From: Clostridiales bacterium
Lineage (GTDB): Bacteria; Bacillota; Clostridia; TANB77; CAG-508
Direction of reading: 5' to 3'
DNA: 64,000 bases
NCBI GenBank assembly: GCA_003534295.1
Contig: DPDV01000008.1
Coordinates: 9,460 to 73,459 of the forward strand
The position numbers were made by a program, and so were the translations under genes. Shown in pieces: positions 19,393 through 27,451 of this stretch (the stretch's first letter is position 1; the number at the start of each line of letters is the position of its first letter). Under the pieces are notes generated by a model. The model was not told the origin of the DNA, made no database searches, and saw nothing but the letters and a program-made list of their open reading frames with translations.

Positions 19393-21819
19393 ATGAATAT
19401 CGAGAAAATTAAGCAGATTGAAAAATTTGCAAAAGACAAGTGGGAGAGAGAAAGGCTTTCGGCCTTTGACCATTCCAAGATGGGAAAGAAACTCTATGTC
19501 ATGGATATGTTTTCTTATCCTTCTGGCGCTAAGCTTCATCTGGGCCATTGGTTCAACTTTGGCTTAGTAGATAGCTATGCTCGGTTCAAAAAGATGCAGG
19601 GCTTTAATGTGTTTCAACCCATGGGTTTTGATGCATTCGGACTCCCTGCTGAGAACTATGCAATAAAGACCGGAACTCATCCTTATGACAGCACCATGAA
19701 GAATATCGAAGTTATGCGTGGTCAGCTGAAAGAGATGGGCGGAATGTTCGACTGGTCTAATGAGGTTGTGACATGTGATCCAGAATACTATAAGTGGACC
19801 CAGTGGGTTTTCTGTGAGCTGTACAAAAGAGGTCTTGCTTACAAGAAAGCCGCACCCGCAAATTGGTGCCCGTCCTGCCAGACTGTTCTTGCAAGAGAAC
19901 AGGTAAAGCAGGGCAAGTGCGAAAGATGTGGCTCTGATGTCCACATTAAGAATATGAATCAGTGGTTTCTCAAGATTACTGATTATGCAGAAGAACTGCT
20001 TACCGGTCTTGATGGTCTGGACTGGCCTGAGAAAACGAAGGCTATGCAGAGAAATTGGATTGGTAAGTCTGAAGGTTCCTCTGTAATCTTCAAAAATGAT
20101 GTGGTTGGGGATCTTGAGATCTTCACCACTCGCCCGGATACCGTTTTTGGTGTGACTTATATTGTTATGGCTCCCGAACATGAGCTTGTTAACAAGCTTG
20201 TTACTGCAGAACATGCAGAGGAAGTCGAAGCATATGTGAGAAACACCGAGAGAATGACAGAAATCGAACGTCAGAGTACTTCTCATGAAAAGACAGGTGT
20301 ATTTACTGGCTCATATGCAGAGAATCCTGTGACTGGTAAGAAGGTCCAGATTTGGATTTCTGACTATGTACTGGAAAGCTATGGAACCGGAATCGTTATG
20401 GCAGTTCCTGCACACGATGATCGTGATTACGAGTTTGCTACCAAGTACGGGCTTGAAATTGTACCTGTTATTGATGCATTTGAACCCGATAACCATTGCG
20501 CATATACCGGTGAAGGAAAAATGATTAATTCTGCCTTCCTTGATGGTATGAGTGTTGAAGAGGCTAAGTCGGCAATTGTTGATTATCTGTCTATCAACGG
20601 CGTTGGAGGTAAAAAGGTTACATATCGTTTGAGAGACTGGCTGATTTCTCGTCAAAGATACTGGGGAGCACCTATCCCGATTATCTACTGTGATGATTGC
20701 GGAGAAGTTCTTGTTCCTGATGAACAGCTTCCTGTGCTTCTCCCGTATGATGTGGATTTCAAACCAGATGGCGAATCTCCTTTGGCAAGATGCGAAAGCT
20801 TTGTGAAAACTGTTTGTCCTTGCTGTGGTAAGGAAGCAAGACGCGAAGTGGACACCATGGATACTTTCATGTGTTCCTCTTGGTATATGCTGAGATATCC
20901 TGATGCAAGAAATGACAAGCAGGCATTTGACCCAGATTTTATCAATCAGATGCTTCCTGTTGACAAGTATGTCGGTGGTGCAGAGCATAGTTGTATGCAT
21001 CTTATATATGCAAGATTCGTAACAAAGGTTCTCAGAGATGCTGGTTATCTCAAATTTGATGAACCATTTACCTCTCTGGTTCACCAGGGTACCATTCTTG
21101 GCCCTGATGGTCAGAAGATGAGTAAGTCCAAGGGAAACACTGTTTCTCCGGATGAGTACATTGATAAGTTCGGTTCTGATGTATTCAGAACCTACCTGAT
21201 GTTTGGTTTCAATTACACTGAGGGTGGTCCATGGTCTGAAAGTGGTATTGCATCAATTCAGAAGTATTACGACAGAGTCGACAGGATTTTCGAGAAATAC
21301 TTGAGAATTGAGAAGCTTGAGGATATCTGCGAAGATGAGGAAATTAAGCTTTTGATTGCAGTGAATTCCACTATCGATAAAATTACCAACGGTCTTGATA
21401 CCTTCCAGTTCAACACAACAATCGCGAGAATGATGGAGCTGTTCAGCAACATTAGATCCTATCTTGACACTGGCAGAAATTCTAAGATTCTTATCGATGT
21501 CATGGAAAATGTAACCAAGTTGATGGCTCCGGAAGCACCGCACCTGGCTGAATACTACTGGGAATCTTTAGGACATACATGTAGCATTTTCAAGGAAAAA
21601 TGGCCTGAAGTTGATGAAAAAATCGGAATGTATGCAAATATCAATATTCCGGTTCAGATCAACTCCAAGAATATCACCGTGCTAAATGTCAAGAAGGATA
21701 TCAGCAAGGAAGAAATTCAGAAAATGGCTATGGACTATGTTAATGCAAAGCTCAACGGGTGCGAAATCAAGAAAGTGATTTTCGTTCCTAACAGAATCAT
21801 AAACTTCGTTGTAAAATGA
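19393..21819 (+). CDS. leuS: leucyl-tRNA synthetase, complete; compositionally foreign (G+C clearly higher than flanks)
   Basis: 808 aa. HIGH motif (HLGH), the KMSKS motif, a CP1 editing domain and a Zn Cys cluster. RBS GGAGG. Codons are rich in G/C at the third position. Confidence 0.95.
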   Translation: MNIEKIKQIEKFAKDKWERERLSAFDHSKMGKKLYVMDMFSYPSGAKLHLGHWFNFGLVDSYARFKKMQGFNVFQPMGFDAFGLPAENYAIKTGTHPYDSTMKNIEVMRGQLKEMGGMFDWSNEVVTCDPEYYKWTQWVFCELYKRGLAYKKAAPANWCPSCQTVLAREQVKQGKCERCGSDVHIKNMNQWFLKITDYAEELLTGLDGLDWPEKTKAMQRNWIGKSEGSSVIFKNDVVGDLEIFTTRPDTVFGVTYIVMAPEHELVNKLVTAEHAEEVEAYVRNTERMTEIERQSTSHEKTGVFTGSYAENPVTGKKVQIWISDYVLESYGTGIVMAVPAHDDRDYEFATKYGLEIVPVIDAFEPDNHCAYTGEGKMINSAFLDGMSVEEAKSAIVDYLSINGVGGKKVTYRLRDWLISRQRYWGAPIPIIYCDDCGEVLVPDEQLPVLLPYDVDFKPDGESPLARCESFVKTVCPCCGKEARREVDTMDTFMCSSWYMLRYPDARNDKQAFDPDFINQMLPVDKYVGGAEHSCMHLIYARFVTKVLRDAGYLKFDEPFTSLVHQGTILGPDGQKMSKSKGNTVSPDEYIDKFGSDVFRTYLMFGFNYTEGGPWSESGIASIQKYYDRVDRIFEKYLRIEKLEDICEDEEIKLLIAVNSTIDKITNGLDTFQFNTTIARMMELFSNIRSYLDTGRNSKILIDVMENVTKLMAPEAPHLAEYYWESLGHTCSIFKEKWPEVDEKIGMYANINIPVQINSKNITVLNVKKDISKEEIQKMAMDYVNAKLNGCEIKKVIFVPNRIINFVVK

Positions 21820-21968: not shown

Positions 21969-23214
21969 TTATCTTTCCAAATCCCATTCTTTTTCCATTT
22001 CTTCATGTTTTATTTGTTTTTCTGGATCAAGAAAAGTATTAGTTTCTTTTTGAAAATCTCTAATTAAATTATCTTCTTCAGCAATATCAAATTTAACACA
22101 AATCCAATGTATGAATTTATCAATAGTTTCGTAGAATTTATCAATTATTTTGTGTAATTTACTATTTTCTTTTTCTAATTTACTAACTTTATATTTGTAT
22201 TCATACTCTAAATTATAAGATTTTTCTTGATATTCCTTTTCAAGTTCTTTTTTTCTGTTATCATATTTTAAATCAAGAGTATTATTTTTATTTTGATATT
22301 CGTGTTTTATTTCTTTTACAGTATTGTGTAATTTCTTGTTATCTGCAATGATTTTATCTCGTTCTTTTTGATATTTTACAGCCTCATCAACAATTTTGGA
22401 TTGTTTTGATATTTCTTTATGCAATGATAAATTACATTATATAATTCTTTAATTAAATCATCTTTAGGTTTTATGATTTCTTTTAGTATTTTTTCATCTC
22501 TTTTTGTTGAAAACTTACTAATTTCATTTATATTTGGAACTTCTGGTATTTCTAGTTTAATTTCTTTTAGAACTTTCTTAGTATTTTCATAATTTGTAAT
22601 TTTCTTATATTCTTCAACTGTATAATGTTTTCTGTCAGTATCTTCTACAAACATACCGCTTTCTAAATTAAAACCCTTTGATTTTATATGATTAAAGTAG
22701 GCATCCTGTAATTTTCTATAACTGTCTTGACCTTTCCAAAAATCTCTTGCACAAATTTTATCAATGTCGTTTCCATCTTTGTCTTTGGTATGAACAACAG
22801 GAACAAACATTAAGTGCATATGTGGTACACCTTCATCTAAATGTACCACTGCTGATATTATATTTTTTCTCCTAGATTCTTATAACTGCATATAAATTTA
22901 TAACATTCATCAAAATATCTTTTGGTCTCTTTTTCTCCAATTTTATCAAAGAATGCTTGGTCAGATGTAAATATCATTTGACACATTATTATACTATTAC
23001 TCCTAAGATGACCTTGCACATTATTTTCTTTTAAATATTTATCAAATTCTTTGGCGTATGTTAGTCCATTTTTTTTAATGTAATAATTTAAGTGTGTTTT
23101 TGTAGGAGCAATATCTTTATTAGTATGATTTTTTGCTTTTCTATCATTATGAGTTCCTTTTCCATTTACTTCTGCTCGTGTTAATTTTTCATTTCTTACA
23201 ATAACATGACTCAT
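21969..23214 (-). pseudogene. mob: MobV-family relaxase (Mob/Pre plasmid recombination enzyme) split across three reading frames
   Basis: N-terminus MSHVIVRNEK... resembles MobM. The HxDE..PHxH motif VHLDEGVPHMHLMFVP sits in the second frame. The C-terminal coiled coil is in the third frame. The first junction is restored by A5 to A6 (NLGEKNIISAVVHLDE). Confidence 0.75.
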
Positions 23215-23261
23215 ATCTCCTTGCCCCTCCTTCTTTGCTCGAGATATTGTTTCAATGTCTA

Positions 23262-23295
23262 ACACACTAGACAAACAAAGTTTGTCTGTGTGGCA
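23262..23295. promoter_or_regulatory. candidate oriT: inverted repeat followed by GTGTGG just upstream of mob
   Basis: AGACAAACaaagTTTGTCT-GTGTGG. MobV oriTs have an IR next to a GTGTG-type nick region. Confidence 0.35.
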
Positions 23296-24190
23296 GGGTT
23301 AGGCAATCCCACACCCCAAAACCTAAAATTTCTTAATTGCATTTTAGATTTTTCATAAAAATTTGCTTATTGCAATTTTTATGAATGTGAGCAAAAAAAT
23401 AAATTTTTTACTCACAACCCAAAAGCATAAGCGCTTTTTGGCATTTACTTTAGCAACTACTAAGCAGAAACTAGAGGAAGAGAGCTAAAGTGAATTAGGT
23501 GTAATAATCCCATTGTTACAAATAGAATTATTACGCCTATATAAGTAGAAACCGTCGGTCGTTCGCCTCGTTTCATAGGTAGTCTAGTAAGTAGCTTTGC
23601 TACTATAATTGTTGATACTACTAAAGTATCTTTGTTCATACTTGTCCAAACTTTTTACAATTATAAATCCACACCAAAATATGCCACCGAATACTCTTTT
23701 ATTATTGTGAGTCTGTGTTCTAAAATCTCACTCACTCACCTTGTATAATTAGACTGCTTATACAAATACGAATGAACTTTATAGCATCGGCTCATTACAC
23801 CTATCACTTTTTAAGAGTTTGTGGCAATTCTCTTTTAAACATAAAAAACTACCTGTAGCTTAAAAACTACAAGTAGTCTATGTTTATTCTATTTAATTAG
23901 CCATCACAATCGATTTAAGGCAATTTATTGTGAGGATAGAGTAATTTTTTACGATAAAATTTTATAAAAAATTTTCAAAATCTATTTATCAATGGTAGAT
24001 TATCTGTTATAATAGTTCATAAATAACATCTAACCAATATCTAACCAAAACATTAAAAAATATGTTATTTTATAAATATTGTTTAATAGTAAGTTAGATA
24101 AATTAGTATGGGAAAAATGTTTGAGATAAAGCTATTTTAAGAAGTATTATATAATAATAAATAACAAAATATATAAAACACTTATAAAGG

Positions 24191-24266
24191 CTCTGACTCC
24201 GACATTCCTGTGTTCGAATCACAGTACCCCAACCACAAAGCAACTAGTTAATTTGACTAGTTGCTT
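24191..24266. repeat. attR: second copy of the 76-bp direct repeat (partial tRNA-Gln 3' half plus hairpin)
   Basis: Identical to 14475-14550. Confidence 0.85.
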
Positions 24267-24295
24267 CTTTCATTGCTTACTTTAGAATTCCTGTT

Positions 24296-25564
<1,269 letters not shown>

Positions 25565-25665
25565 TTAATACTCCCTTCTTATATGATATATTTAAATATA
25601 TTATATCTATTTATTAATTTTTTATTTAAAATTTCAATTGTTTAACATAATTTTGGTCAATAATG

Positions 25666-25694
25666 TTGACTTTTGTCTTATTATATATTATAAT
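25666..25694 (+). promoter_or_regulatory. perfect sigma-A consensus promoter (TTGACT-17-TATAAT) with no downstream protein gene
   Basis: TTGACT tttgtcttattatatat TATAAT. Confidence 0.5.
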
Positions 25695-25700
25695 AATAAC

Positions 25701-26068
25701 TAGTTTGGGAGTAATCACTCCCACATATGTAAACATATATATGTATATATTTTTACATATGTATTCTGTCTACCAGAACATATATCTGGTAGATTTCGTC
25801 GAGAGCGATGCTCTCATCCAAGAAAGAAATGGGCTTTCATCGTCCACTTTACGTCTTTGGTGGTACGATGAGTCACCTCACAAATTTGCTCATTTCTTTC
25901 TTTTCGGGGTACTCACCATGTTCTCCTTGTTCACCTTGGTAGTTTCCCCCCTGTATTGTGTATCAGGTGAGTATCCCCGAAAAAAGAGGCATTTTTTCAA
26001 AATGGTTGTTTGGAAAGGACAGCCATACGCCTCTGCAAAAGAGACACACGCAAGTGTGTCTTTTTTGC
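25701..26068 (+). ncRNA. candidate structured ncRNA 1 (about 370 nt, GC-enriched, several long stems, intrinsic terminator)
   Basis: Stems AAGAAAGAAATG/CATTTCTTTCTT, TTTTCGGGGTACTCACC/GGTGAGTATCCCCGAAAA and AGAGGC/GCCTCT. Terminator AGACACACgcaaGTGTGTCTTTTTT at 26043-26068. No credible ORF. Confidence 0.3.
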
Positions 26069-26078
26069 GTGGATTATG

Positions 26079-26107
26079 TTGACTTTTGATTTTCTTTGTA
26101 GTATAAT
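26079..26107 (+). promoter_or_regulatory. second perfect sigma-A consensus promoter (TTGACT-17-TATAAT)
   Basis: TTGACT tttgattttctttgtag TATAAT immediately after the terminator of unit 1. Confidence 0.5.
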
Positions 26108-26113
26108 TGTATT

Positions 26114-26430
26114 GTTACGAAGCAATCCGCTTCTGTAACATAAGAAGATGTGTTATACATATGAATTTATTTCATTTTTAGCGCATCTTCCAAAAGGAGA
26201 GAAAACTGCATAGTGCTTTCGGGGCATGCACATGTGGTATTGGGAAAGTTGTTATTTTTCTGCTTTGCCATACGGCTTTCCCTTTCTCTCTTTAAAAAAA
26301 ACAATCAAATATTCTCCTTATAATCTCCGTACGTAAGGAGGATATTGATTGCTTACATAGCAGACAGAATAATAATATATTCCGCCATTCTGTCTGCATC
26401 AAAAAACGCACATACTTTGTGCGTTTTTTG
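26114..26430 (+). ncRNA. candidate structured ncRNA 2 (about 310 nt) ending in a bidirectional terminator
   Basis: Hairpins GTTACgaagcaatccgcttcTGTAAC, GAAGATG...CATCTTC and CAGACAGAAT...ATTCTGTCTG. Terminator AAAAAACGCACAaagtaTGTGCGTTTTTT at 26401-26430. Confidence 0.25.
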
Positions 26431-26452
26431 TTTTATTTATGTTTGTTTTTTG

Positions 26453-27451
26453 TTATTTCATACTTTCCTCTACTGCAACTGCTATAGAAACGGTAGCTCC
26501 AACCATAGGGTTGTTTCCCATGCCAATCAATCCCATCATTTCTACATGCGCTGGTACAGAAGATGAACCCGCAAATTGTGCATCTGAATGCATTCTTCCC
26601 ATTGTATCTGTCATTCCGTATGATGCTGGTCCTGCTGCCATATTGTCTGGATGTAAAGTTCTTCCTGTTCCTCCACCTGATGCAACTGAAAAATATTTTC
26701 TTCCTGCTTCTAATCTTTCTTTTTTGTATGTACCTGCTACTGGATGTTGAAATCTTGTTGGATTTGTTGAGTTGCCTGTTATAGATACATCAACATCTTC
26801 TAGCCACATTATTGCAACTCCTTCTCTAACATCATTTGCTCCATAGCATCTAACTTTGCTTCTTTCTCCATTTGAATATGCAATTTCTTCTACAACATTT
26901 ACTTTTCCTGTATAAAAATCAAAATCTGTTTTAACATATGTAAAGCCATTTATTCTAGATATAACTTGTGCTGCATCTTTTCCTAATCCGTTTAATATAA
27001 CTCTTAAAGGCTCTTTTCTTACTTTATTTGCAGATTTTGCAATTCCTATTGCTCCTTCTGCTGCTGCAAAACTCTCATGTCCAGCTAGAAAAGCAAAACA
27101 TTTTGTATCTTCACTTAATAACATTGATGCTAAATTTCCATGCCCCAAGCCTACTTTTCTGTCATCTGCAACTGAACCTGGTATGCAAAATGCCTGTAGT
27201 CCTTCTCCTATTGCCTTTGCAGCTTCATGTGCTTTTGTACAACCTTTTTTTATAGCTATTGCAGCACCTAATGTATATGCCCAACAAGCATTTTCAAAAC
27301 AAATAGTTTGAATACTTCTTGTTATTTCATATGGATTAAATCCTTTATCCGTACATATTTTTAATGCTTCATCGAAATCTTTTATTCCATATTTCTCCAT
27401 TACTGGTTTTATTTGGTCTATTCTTCTTTCATAACTTTCAAATAATGCCAT
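26453..27451 (-). CDS. GGGtGRT family protein
   Basis: Signature SGGGTGRTLHP. 332 aa. Confidence 0.75.
   Translation of the reverse strand: MALFESYERRIDQIKPVMEKYGIKDFDEALKICTDKGFNPYEITRSIQTICFENACWAYTLGAAIAIKKGCTKAHEAAKAIGEGLQAFCIPGSVADDRKVGLGHGNLASMLLSEDTKCFAFLAGHESFAAAEGAIGIAKSANKVRKEPLRVILNGLGKDAAQVISRINGFTYVKTDFDFYTGKVNVVEEIAYSNGERSKVRCYGANDVREGVAIMWLEDVDVSITGNSTNPTRFQHPVAGTYKKERLEAGRKYFSVASGGGTGRTLHPDNMAAGPASYGMTDTMGRMHSDAQFAGSSSVPAHVEMMGLIGMGNNPMVGATVSIAVAVEESMK

Follow-up and report, generated by a model that had tools for sequence, protein, structure and literature searches.

The locus under study lies between eno (enolase) and the gene of a PF14057 GGGtGRT protein, in a 64-kb stretch of DNA that was analysed as a whole (the window). 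The non-coding unit flagged by the original prediction (unit 1, 25666-26068, + strand) is the first of two adjacent hairpin-chain units; unit 2, of the same design, follows directly downstream at 26079-26436. In each unit a strong sigma-A promoter precedes the chain of hairpins and an intrinsic terminator closes it, both being predicted. The next gene after the units, GGGtGRT, is located on the - strand, convergent with them, and both units end at terminators. The elements of the locus are the following:

25666-25694, + strand: promoter P1, with a -35 box TTGACT (25666-25671), a 17-nt spacer and a -10 box TATAAT (25689-25694); 11 of 12 consensus matches.
25663-26082, + strand: 139-aa open reading frame (ORF) whose start lies within the -35 box and which extends through the terminator.
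25701-26068, + strand: unit 1 RNA body, approximately 368 nt; eight consecutive hairpins, H1 to H7 and the terminator.
26035-26068, + strand: intrinsic terminator T1, a 15-bp stem (arms 26035-26049 and 26054-26068, 93% complementary) with a 4-nt GCAA loop and a T run.
26079-26107, + strand: promoter P2, TTGACT-17-TATAAT, 73% identical to P1 over 44 nt.
26114-26436, + strand: unit 2 RNA body, approximately 320 nt; a hairpin array with a fold z of -11.6.
26400-26430, + strand: unit 2 terminator, bidirectional-looking and symmetric, preceded by an A run and followed by a T run.
25987-26191, no strand assigned: segment spanning H7, T1, P2 and the first two unit 2 hairpins, present in some strains and absent from others; its edges lie in AAAAG(G)AG microhomology.

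The promoter of unit 1 had been described as perfect; it is present where it had been placed, but the adjective is slightly generous, as the -35 box reads TTGACT and not TTGACA. Transcription is predicted to start at about position 25701, and the exact 38-nt pattern of P1 was found in 18 metagenome contigs. The terminator was confirmed as well, with its GCAA loop and T run, and its two variable pairs are both still paired across alleles. T1 is missing from the + strand list of the consensus scanner, we infer because its T run is absorbed into the extended stem. As predicted from the sequence, unit 1 has what is generally expected of an sRNA gene, namely a promoter with 11 of 12 matches, a 15-bp terminator, and an ORF whose strain variants hop between frames. 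No gene lies downstream on the same strand, as a cis-regulatory leader (riboswitch, T-box or attenuator) would need. The likeness between units 1 and 2 is limited to their promoters; when the two bodies were compared as possible paralogs, their local alignment was no better than those of shuffled sequences (87 of 300 shuffles scored at least as high).

Strains that do not contain the segment 25987-26191 (alleles L096-L099, L109, L110, L113 and L117) carry one fused unit of approximately 475 nt, in which all of the C/U-rich loops are retained and only H7, T1, P2 and two hairpins are gone. The locus would accordingly comprise two adjacent + strand ncRNA genes, predicted to be transcribed independently, that are fused to one in some strains.

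The 368-nt transcript predicted for unit 1 displayed a minimum free energy (MFE) of -145.7 kcal/mol, whereas dinucleotide-shuffled sequences gave -82.5 +/- 5.5 (z = -11.6), none of the 100 shuffles matching the native value. In a GC-regressed MFE scan, positions 25600-26500 were the most structured stretch of the 64-kb window after GC correction, holding the six top-ranked 200-nt segments. The long complementary stems noted originally were borne out, with 19-nt, 20-nt and 15-nt arms complementary at 95%, 80% and 93%, respectively. The G+C content is indeed raised (0.37-0.445, the AT-rich spacer alongside having 0.17-0.21 and most nearby coding DNA about 0.29-0.36), but to call it far above the background was an overstatement, as the GGGtGRT gene reaches 0.43. 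Unit 2 has one small junction besides its linear chain of hairpins. The hairpins of unit 1 upstream of T1 are:

25707-25722, + strand: H1, a 6-bp hairpin (GGGAGU/ACUCCC), with a G-C to G-U change in one allele.
25723-25762, + strand: H2, an AU-rich hairpin of 11 + 6 bp.
25768-25794, + strand: H3, a 10-bp hairpin.
25801-25815, + strand: H4, a 6-bp hairpin, extended to 7 bp in some alleles by an AT insertion.
25821-25901, + strand: H5, a 15-bp outer stem around an inner hairpin and a single-stranded stretch.
25902-25982, + strand: H6, a 17-bp stem that contains one bulged U and varies in its apical region.
25985-26034, + strand: H7, a hairpin of 6 + 10 bp in a nearly invariant block, missing in the fused alleles.

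Variation within the hairpins was followed in alleles sampled from metagenomes (14 of unit 1 and 11 of unit 2). Two further sequences, L086 and L087, gave a first impression of diverged alleles, which was dropped since frameshifts break up the eno and GGGtGRT genes on either side of them; they were judged error-prone, probably long-read, and discarded. H2 occurs in three length alleles, its outer stem ACAUAUGU being kept in all of them, and its pair 32/53 is A-U in six alleles and U-A in six; the H6 pair 215/282 is found in G-C, G-U and A-U versions. Strain divergence in 26000-26099 amounts to 0.5%.

The RNAalifold consensus of unit 1 comprises 100 pairs, none of which is broken in 13 alleles (1298/1298 stem cells paired), and that of unit 2 comprises 99 pairs, with 99.4% of the cells paired in 11 alleles, the consensus structure having been derived from the same sequences on which pairing was tested. 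As a control, the 3' partners were slid by 1-3 columns, and the fraction of paired cells fell to 40-55%. Variable columns made up 8% of the paired ones (31/398) compared to 40% of the unpaired ones (119/298; Fisher p = 8e-25). Stem polymorphisms read on the + strand were of the G-U type in 22 cases and of the A-C type in 2 (binomial p = 3.6e-5), and the + strand MFE was below that of the - strand in all 25 two-unit alleles and in all fused alleles, with a mean + strand stability advantage of 9.6 kcal/mol for unit 1 (14/14 alleles) and 26.6 kcal/mol for unit 2. As all alleles come from one species, they offer little evolutionary depth. Only four pairs have changed on both sides, and the number of covarying pairs did not differ significantly from the shuffle controls (189/500 and 188/500). 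What is found, at this within-species depth and with four double-sided pairs, are the marks of a structured RNA under selection: pairs are maintained and wobble is strand-specific. To judge from these sequence data, the locus very probably encodes a genuine + strand structured ncRNA under selection. Within-species metagenome variation can thus establish the non-coding nature, the functional strand and the constrained loops of an RNA that has no cross-species homologues.

Divergence between strains was unevenly distributed. It was 1.06% in 25562-25700, which includes P1, and 0.42% in P2 (0.4-1.1% for the promoters and tail), while in the RNA it was 3.0% at paired and 8.7% at unpaired sites, not counting indels, compared to 0.6-5.4% at the 4-fold sites of nearby genes. 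Unpaired positions therefore diverge at 2-3 times the 4-fold rate of gpmI and tpiA and at about 13 times that of eno; a first impression of extreme hypervariability of the loops was toned down after this calibration, the excess not being one of orders of magnitude. Compared to the unpaired sites of the body, divergence is 3- to 20-fold lower in the promoters, the terminators and specific loops. The changes in the loops include inversions, apical indels and clustered multi-nucleotide changes, and each hairpin has a few discrete haplotypes, which recombine to give mosaic alleles. Inversions were observed in H3, whose loop is found in both orientations among strains (ACATATA vs TATTATGT), in H5 of allele L101, where 85 nt of the interior match in reverse orientation at 90.6%, and in the loop of the unit 2 terminator of L114. 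Even where no selection acts, template switching between the arms of inverted repeats can invert loops and yield double changes that look 'compensatory' (PMC8604942). The fast turnover of the loops is most simply explained as a mutational by-product of the inverted repeats, with template switching occurring where constraint is weak.

Against this variable background, a small number of loops are invariant or nearly so:

25873-25881, + strand: motif UCACCUCAC in H5, in 34/35 alleles; mean unpaired probability 0.92.
25920-25928, + strand: motif GUUCUCCUU in H6, the complement of AAGGAGAAC, in 35/35 alleles; unpaired probability 0.85.
26253-26271, + strand: loop UAUUUUUCUGCUUUGCCAU of the central unit 2 hairpin, invariant in the alignment; unpaired probability 0.83.
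26324-26331, + strand: loop motif UCUCCGUA of unit 2, in 35/35 alleles, surrounded by a variable stem; unpaired probability 0.85.
26375-26386, + strand: loop AUAUAUUCCGCC of the last unit 2 hairpin, in 35/35 alleles; unpaired probability 0.95.

The invariant loops are predicted to be accessible (unpaired probability 0.83-0.99). Conserved unpaired C-rich motifs of the kind present in RNAIII and RsaE are found among them, as UCACCUCAC, GUUCUCCUU, UCUCCGUA and UUCCGCC occur in 34-35 of 35 alleles with an unpaired probability of at least 0.85; the one allele in which UCACCUCAC is inverted is L101. This motif resembles the 3' tail of Firmicute 16S rRNA in its textbook form. K-mers matching the anti-Shine-Dalgarno tail of 16S rRNA (again the textbook tail) were enriched 2.4- to 4.8-fold (p = 3e-4 vs the window, 0.002-0.006 vs shuffles), a modest enrichment to which polypyrimidine stem arms contribute. 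When duplexes were predicted with the 42 start regions of the window, only generic Shine-Dalgarno pairing was obtained, the best at -18 kcal/mol, with no outlier target.

An Rfam scan, which had been proposed together with the original prediction, placed none of the 4227 Rfam 15 models at gathering score in 25500-26500, those of 6S, SRP, RNase P, tmRNA, OLE, ROOL, GOLLD, raiA, HEARO, the T-box and riboswitches included; at a permissive E <= 10 nothing credible appeared, and five other alleles were also without a match. The best sub-threshold matches, both to terminator-like features of unit 2, were SraG (25.1 bits, gathering score 50) and PK-repZ (25, gathering score 44). ARAGORN detected 0 tRNA or tmRNA genes in the same interval. 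The negative Rfam scan indicates that unit 1 is in none of the housekeeping RNA classes, and the initial view of a non-coding, stable structured RNA of no recognised class has held up as a prediction from the sequence. No described RNA matching the locus was found in the literature. If transcribed as predicted, the RNA represents a new orphan sRNA family, belonging to a very common uncultured small-genome human-gut species of Clostridia.

Several known RNAs are nevertheless worth comparing. OLE, ROOL, GOLLD and raiA, the functions of which are unknown or recently emerging, were discovered as GC-rich islands in AT-rich genomes (the GC-IGR approach). They are likewise GC-enriched and highly structured; the present locus differs from them in matching no Rfam family, in forming a linear hairpin chain without long-range helices or multi-stem junctions (bar the small one in unit 2), and in being limited to one species. 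RsaE is approximately 100 nt long and conserved across Bacillales, whereas the RNA described here has 320-370 nt and occurs in one species; no Rfam family, RsaE included, attained its gathering threshold, and the enrichment in anti-Shine-Dalgarno-like words here is modest. What is shared with RsaE/RoxS is a stable sRNA that ends in a terminator and has an unpaired C-rich motif where its conservation is highest, occlusion of the ribosome-binding site having been proposed (PMC2790875). Staphylococcus aureus RNAIII likewise measures several hundred nucleotides, has a promoter and a terminator of its own and consists of many hairpins in a row; its sequence diverges fast outside the conserved loops, a few of which, unpaired and C-rich, could pair with Shine-Dalgarno regions (PMC2790875). 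The units differ from it in that they have no sequence or covariance-model similarity to RNAIII, no embedded hld-like peptide gene and no nearby agr, in their loop motifs (CUCC/CCUC, as opposed to UCCC in RNAIII), and in being two in tandem, or one fused.

The locus is confined to one widespread uncultured human-gut species of Clostridia, and every copy in public data with long enough flanks sits between eno and GGGtGRT; in the public assembly collection, 563 blocks are indexed for the exact enolase protein of the host. In sister species the two genes are separated by a gap of 100-190 bp that does not contain the locus. Synteny, followed via GGGtGRT in 80 GTDB relatives, revealed no homologous DNA; in those relatives where eno adjoins GGGtGRT, the gap between the two was short or, in L009, occupied by a small protein gene. 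In the sister species L004 a terminator hairpin follows GGGtGRT, and eno has an apparent promoter and ribosome-binding site of its own. A search with the enolase protein gave no intermediate relatives among the matches listed, which were at least 99% identical. The paralog search in the 64-kb window returned AT-rich chance matches only, so that the locus is single-copy there. Dispersed palindromic repeats or MITEs (REP, BOX, RUP, Correia, IS200/605-derived) would be multi-copy, whereas no paralog was found in the window and a single locus in public data. Retron ncRNA, omega RNA, bridge RNA or CRISPR would call for an adjacent reverse transcriptase, TnpB/IscB, IS110 recombinase or cas genes, or for identical repeats in an array; the locus is instead flanked by enolase and by the GGGtGRT/gpmI glycolytic operon, and its hairpins are all different from one another. 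With regard to a phage- or plasmid-borne element, such as the single-strand origin of a rolling-circle plasmid, no match was found in 50,697 phage records, 72,556 plasmid records or three IMG/VR pattern scans. An integration site and a variable Mob_Pre element are situated near the locus; the Mob_Pre remnant is on the other side of eno and varies independently of the locus, and in some strains an accessory island with XRE and DUF4065-like genes, situated at the 3' end of GGGtGRT, abuts the locus.

One possible function is suggested by the invariant loops. The hairpin scaffold would render the RNA stable and abundant and expose a few accessible C/U-rich loops (UCACCUCAC, GUUCUCCUU, UCUCCGUA and UUCCGCC), and these may pair with purine-rich, Shine-Dalgarno-type sequences of mRNAs and so modulate translation or stability, as in Staphylococcus RNAIII and RsaE; the binding of unpaired C-rich motifs to Shine-Dalgarno sequences has a precedent (PMC2790875). 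By analogy with these RNAs, such an anti-Shine-Dalgarno mechanism is put forward tentatively. The explanation as a whole, a structured ncRNA that acts as an anti-Shine-Dalgarno regulator, we would place, as a compromise between its parts, a little short of an even chance. The practical importance of the RNA is for the time being limited.

A different possibility is that the RNAs work through their double-stranded or hairpin parts, as a decoy, sponge or scaffold titrating an RNA-binding protein (KhpB-, ProQ/FinO- or Hfq-type, or RNase III). We consider this unlikely, although several observations are in line with it: the stems are the main target of selection and most loops can vary freely, many helices are long and near-perfect (10-17 bp), hairpin number changes without loss of the locus (the fused allele, apical deletions), and the two strong predicted promoters imply high abundance. 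However, the hairpins have no loop or stem motif in common, whereas CsrB-type sponges carry GGA repeats; the few invariant loops are each of a different sequence, and no candidate partner gene adjoins the locus.

The same stems could also be viewed as functionless or selfish palindromic DNA, an inverted-repeat cluster, possibly a decayed mobile element, whose arms are kept perfect by template switching and whose transcription is incidental. Template switching yields Watson-Crick arms alike on both strands, and would leave unexplained both the 22:2 excess of G-U-type over A-C-type changes and the 10-27 kcal/mol advantage of the + strand in every allele; moreover, the locus is single-copy, all recovered copies being at the same place, and it shows 3- to 20-fold less divergence in its promoters, terminators and specific loops than at the unpaired sites of its body. 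This renders the proposal improbable, even though the stems are unusually perfect, loop inversions, apical indels and clustered changes form a template-switching signature (PMC8604942), sister species do not have the locus, and a variable Mob_Pre element and integration site are close by. Quasi-palindromes produced by template switching are similar to the locus in their loop inversions (here in H3, H5 and the unit 2 terminator), homogenised arms and multi-nucleotide changes (PMC8604942); they differ in that they reflect a mutational process and not a function, which accounts neither for the G-U bias of the + strand nor for the conserved promoters, terminators and loops. The structured ncRNA offers a case from nature in which mutation driven by inverted repeats (loop flips, arm homogenisation) and selection at the RNA level act side by side, and covariation analyses must separate the two.

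The position of the units, convergent with the gap-pgk-tpi-gpmI-GGGtGRT operon, raises the question of a cis-acting device, in which two promoters firing head-on into the operon, antisense RNA and bidirectional terminators would insulate or tune eno against it. The insertion falls precisely into the interval from GGGtGRT to eno, which measures only about 100 bp in sister species, and the symmetric unit 2 terminator, with its A run upstream and T run downstream, would fit such a role. Interference or insulation requires neither eight conserved hairpins nor invariant loops, though, and the sister species L004 already has the GGGtGRT terminator hairpin and the apparent eno promoter and ribosome-binding site; selection, in addition, is on the fold of the + strand and not on a - strand read-through RNA. 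A cis role accordingly appears quite improbable.

Still less probable, in our estimation, is that the variable loops are strain-specific recognition determinants under diversifying or balancing selection, for example in a hairpin-array decoy or immunity RNA directed against phages, plasmids or competing strains and possibly left over from a mobile element. Divergence at unpaired sites (8.7% plus indels, vs 0.6-5.4% at nearby 4-fold sites), the mosaic alleles with their recombining per-hairpin haplotypes, and the XRE/DUF4065-like island that abuts the locus in some strains would agree with it; if it were true, loop inversions and mosaic recombination would generate new specificities and would not be mutational noise. 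The excess over neutral divergence is, however, just 2- to 3-fold in comparison to gpmI and tpiA, most differences can be counted as a few multi-nucleotide events, the locus has no similarity to phage, plasmid or IMG/VR contigs, and there is no partner gene.

Finally, that the stretch codes for protein, through the 139-aa ORF, a 26-codon ORF of the invariant 3' block or a 36-codon hydrophobic ORF of unit 2, is hardly credible: the first is open and is annotated by gene callers in some assemblies, and the invariant block could conceal a conserved peptide, but the 139-aa ORF starts in the -35 box, upstream of the predicted transcription start, its strain counterparts hop between all three reading frames, and the small ORFs are interrupted by 1-2-nt indels among alleles. 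The absence of a credible ORF, as originally stated, is therefore upheld. A search of 5.8 billion proteins matched only ORF calls of the same locus, as did the search with the unit 2 frame; against 1.84 billion representatives, the 139-aa ORF matched same-locus variants and one weak, unrelated entry (P0153, E = 1.3e-4), a repeat protein suspected to be the translation of a tRNA array. With regard to a type I toxin-antitoxin system, the 36-codon ORF is among those broken by 1-2-nt indels, and no convergent or overlapping promoter pair was found. The protein-like conservation with synonymous substitutions that would have spoken against an RNA was looked for and not seen, as frames hop and stem polymorphisms keep their pairing on the + strand only. 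In the 26-codon ORF, the three substitutions observed (in L094/L114, L102 and L112) are all non-synonymous by hand translation, and all of them keep the RNA pair.

The spacer between the enolase gene (eno) and the PF14057 GGGtGRT gene is 891 bp long and holds two tandem units, both on the plus strand:

24296-25561, minus strand: eno, left flank of the spacer
25666-25694, plus strand: P1, promoter of unit 1, TTGACT-17-TATAAT, 11/12 against consensus
~25701 to 26068, plus strand: predicted body of unit 1
26035-26068, plus strand: T1, terminator of unit 1, a 15-bp hairpin (loop GCAA) followed by a T run
26079-26107, plus strand: P2, promoter of unit 2, TTGACT-17-TATAAT, of the same design as in unit 1
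~26114 to 26436, plus strand: predicted body of unit 2
26400-26430, plus strand: predicted symmetric terminator of unit 2
26453-27451, minus strand: GGGtGRT gene, right flank of the spacer

The proposed non-coding unit, with its promoter, stems and terminator, was confirmed at 25666-26068. The promoter is present as described, "perfect" being a slight overstatement for 11 matches of 12. Similarly, the G+C content of the locus is raised, up to 0.37-0.445, and exceeds that of the spacer and of most coding DNA, but not dramatically, and "far above" background was too strong. The predicted fold of unit 1 consists of eight hairpins in series, with a minimum free energy of -145.7 kcal/mol compared to -82.5 +/- 5.5 in shuffles (z = -11.6); unit 2 also yielded z = -11.6. 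When the whole window was scanned with GC correction, the six most structured 200-nt windows all came from 25600-26500. Next in structure after the RNA locus, and also GC-rich (0.42-0.46), was 19800-20300 on the plus strand, within an 808-aa tRNA-synthetase ORF; long shadow ORFs run opposite this ORF at 19564-20286 and 20311-21084.

The original prediction, made by eye, had matched the region to no tRNA, tmRNA, RNase P or SRP signature, and database scans agreed. Rfam 15 matched the window only twice, both times outside the locus:

37471-37654, minus strand: 6S (SsrS) RNA, RF00013, 97.9 bits, full length
14445-14516, plus strand: tRNA gene, RF00005, 62.4 bits

A permissive Rfam scan of 25500-26500 gave only sub-threshold noise, five further alleles had no Rfam match, and ARAGORN found no gene at the locus. 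Judged by its sequence, the unit belongs to no described RNA family; its closest parallel in presumed mode of action would be the multi-hairpin regulatory RNAs of Firmicutes such as RNAIII and RsaE, and the locus is best filed as a predicted new orphan sRNA family.

The 139-aa ORF (25663-26082), earlier dismissed as not credible, was used as a protein query and retrieved 27 ORF calls. In their alignment, segments switch among all three reading frames of one DNA, as non-coding DNA would do where indel lengths are not divisible by three; we therefore consider the ORF spurious and the locus not protein-coding. Two apparent variants (L086 and L087) were rejected and left out, since frameshifts fragment the flanking genes in those assemblies, which were judged error-prone. 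A unit-2 frame search and a search of 1.84 billion representatives returned the same locus only, plus one weak unrelated match. This match to the spurious ORF (E = 1.3e-4) is a 284-aa database "protein" (P0153) with four near-identical ~76-aa repeats; it is suspected to be a translated tRNA-gene array unrelated to the RNA locus. Protein-like conservation, named in the original prediction as evidence against an RNA, was not seen in the invariant 3' block of unit 1: its three substitutions are all non-synonymous in the small ORF (hand translation) and each preserves an RNA pair, which disfavours a peptide product.

Variation was examined in 14 distinct unit-1 alleles and 11 unit-2 alleles taken from metagenome contigs.

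Divergence by site class, measured against the window sequence
eno 4-fold sites: 0.64%
GGGtGRT 4-fold sites: 2.3%
orf242, gpmI, tpiA and pgk 4-fold sites: 3.1-5.4%
Spacer including P1: 1.06%
P2: 0.42%
Paired RNA positions: 3.0%
Unpaired RNA positions: 8.7%, with many indels besides

Variable columns made up 31/398 of the paired compared to 119/298 of the unpaired positions (p = 8e-25). Positions 26000-26099 (hairpin H7, T1 and the start of P2) are nearly invariant (0.5%), and the 3' half of unit 2, loops included, is better conserved than unit 1. Each hairpin has a few haplotypes, of which the alleles are mosaics; apices are gained and lost while basal stems stay, and loop orientation flips in H3, in the 85-nt H5 interior (L101) and in the unit-2 terminator loop (L114). 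A 205-bp presence/absence polymorphism (25987-26191), edged by AAAAG(G)AG microhomology, removes H7, T1, P2 and two unit-2 hairpins in eight assemblies (L096-L099, L109, L110, L113, L117), about a quarter of those examined. This deletion fuses the units into one predicted RNA of ~475 nt with unchanged fold density. The simplest account of the fast evolution of the loops is inverted-repeat mutagenesis on weakly constrained positions; a diversifying "specificity" role may also be considered.

The RNAalifold consensus has 100 pairs for unit 1, with 1298/1298 cells paired, and 99 pairs for unit 2, with 99.4% of cells paired; when the 3' partners were shifted by 1-3 columns, the paired share fell to 40-55%. 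Only four pairs changed on both sides and the number of covarying pairs was not significant against shuffle controls, so that classical covariation is weak, which is unsurprising at the depth of a single species. Even in the absence of selection, template switching between the arms of inverted repeats can yield both such double changes and inverted loops (PMC8604942). The decisive observation for selection on the predicted RNA fold is, in our view, strand asymmetry. On the plus strand, variable stem pairs passed via G-U in 22 cases and via A-C in 2 (p = 3.6e-5; manual tally of pair tables), the opposite mutational direction being seen only where G-U became a Watson-Crick pair. The plus-strand fold was also the more stable in every allele, by a mean of 9.6 (unit 1) and 26.6 (unit 2) kcal/mol. 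Taken with the pair-keeping 3' substitutions and the conserved promoters and terminators, this asymmetry supports the predicted functional transcript of the plus strand. Neutral palindromic DNA is disfavoured by the asymmetry and the conserved transcription signals, and a minus-strand read-through structure by the G-U excess and greater stability on the plus strand.

Besides stems and transcription signals, selection preserves a few single-stranded segments, all on the plus strand:

25873-25881: UCACCUCAC
25920-25928: GUUCUCCUU
26324-26331: UCUCCGUA
26375-26386: AUAUAUUCCGCC
26253-26271: UAUUUUUCUGCUUUGCCAU

Each of the first four occurs in 34 or 35 of the 35 alleles; the fifth shows no variation in the unit-2 alignment and is present in 27/35, several of these being, by our attribution, truncated contigs. 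All five have a predicted unpaired probability of 0.83-0.99, and the fused allele keeps every one of them. Several are rich in C and U and look like the anti-Shine-Dalgarno tail of 16S rRNA, taken here as the canonical sequence, which may differ from that of the host. In Staphylococcus, a signature of this kind is reported for RNAIII and for RsaE and further Rsa RNAs, whose unpaired C-rich loops bind Shine-Dalgarno sequences (PMC2790875). Our preferred model, a tentative one, is that a stable hairpin scaffold would display anti-Shine-Dalgarno-like loops that could act in trans on translation initiation. We rate it low because words of the canonical tail are only modestly enriched in the locus (2.4- to 4.8-fold), polypyrimidine stem arms account for part of this, and for the 42 start regions of the window generic pairing alone was predicted. 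Alternatively, the RNA units may serve as a protein sponge or as dsRNA, or may interfere in cis with the glycolytic operon.

No homologous DNA was found among 80 GTDB relatives reached via GGGtGRT. Where these carry eno beside GGGtGRT, the gap is 98-187 bp; in the sole relative read in detail (L004) it holds a terminator hairpin, then an apparent eno promoter and ribosome-binding site, and in another (L009) a small protein gene occupies it instead. Phage and plasmid collections and IMG/VR gave no match, and the 64-kb window holds no paralog. In public assemblies, mainly human-gut, 563 indexed blocks contain the exact enolase. Scanning with the 38-nt P1 sequence added 18 contigs, in all of which P1 opens the two-unit or fused sequence described here; those with long enough flanks align to the same neighbourhood. 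These results indicate a single-copy insertion of ~790 bp, confined to a single Clostridia species that is abundant, uncultured and AT-rich. Human guts commonly carry the locus, which offers an unusually clean within-species case for RNA-level selection. The longest contigs of the host species, like the chromosomes of related MAGs, measure ~1.4-1.5 Mb.

In two assemblies (L088, 1024-2259; L114, 12290-14644) only the last 23 nt of GGGtGRT (window ~26453-26475) remain to the right of unit 2. An accessory island follows, in which genes for an XRE-type HTH protein, a membrane protein and a DUF4065-like protein lie; this suggests integration at the 3' end of GGGtGRT in some strains. A Mob_Pre (PF01076) relaxase gene (21969-23274, minus strand), located between the tRNA-synthetase gene and eno, is split into three consecutive ORFs, and the adjoining 23275-24295 has no long ORF. 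Among other strains (L081-L085), Mob_Pre is more intact in L084 and L085 and absent from L083; the stretch looks like a decaying mobilisable element. Between strains, the 4-fold divergence of eno is 5-8x below that of gpmI, tpiA and pgk (28269-31873) in the same neighbourhood, possibly owing to strong codon selection, or else because recombination or a sweep has recently affected the region around eno.
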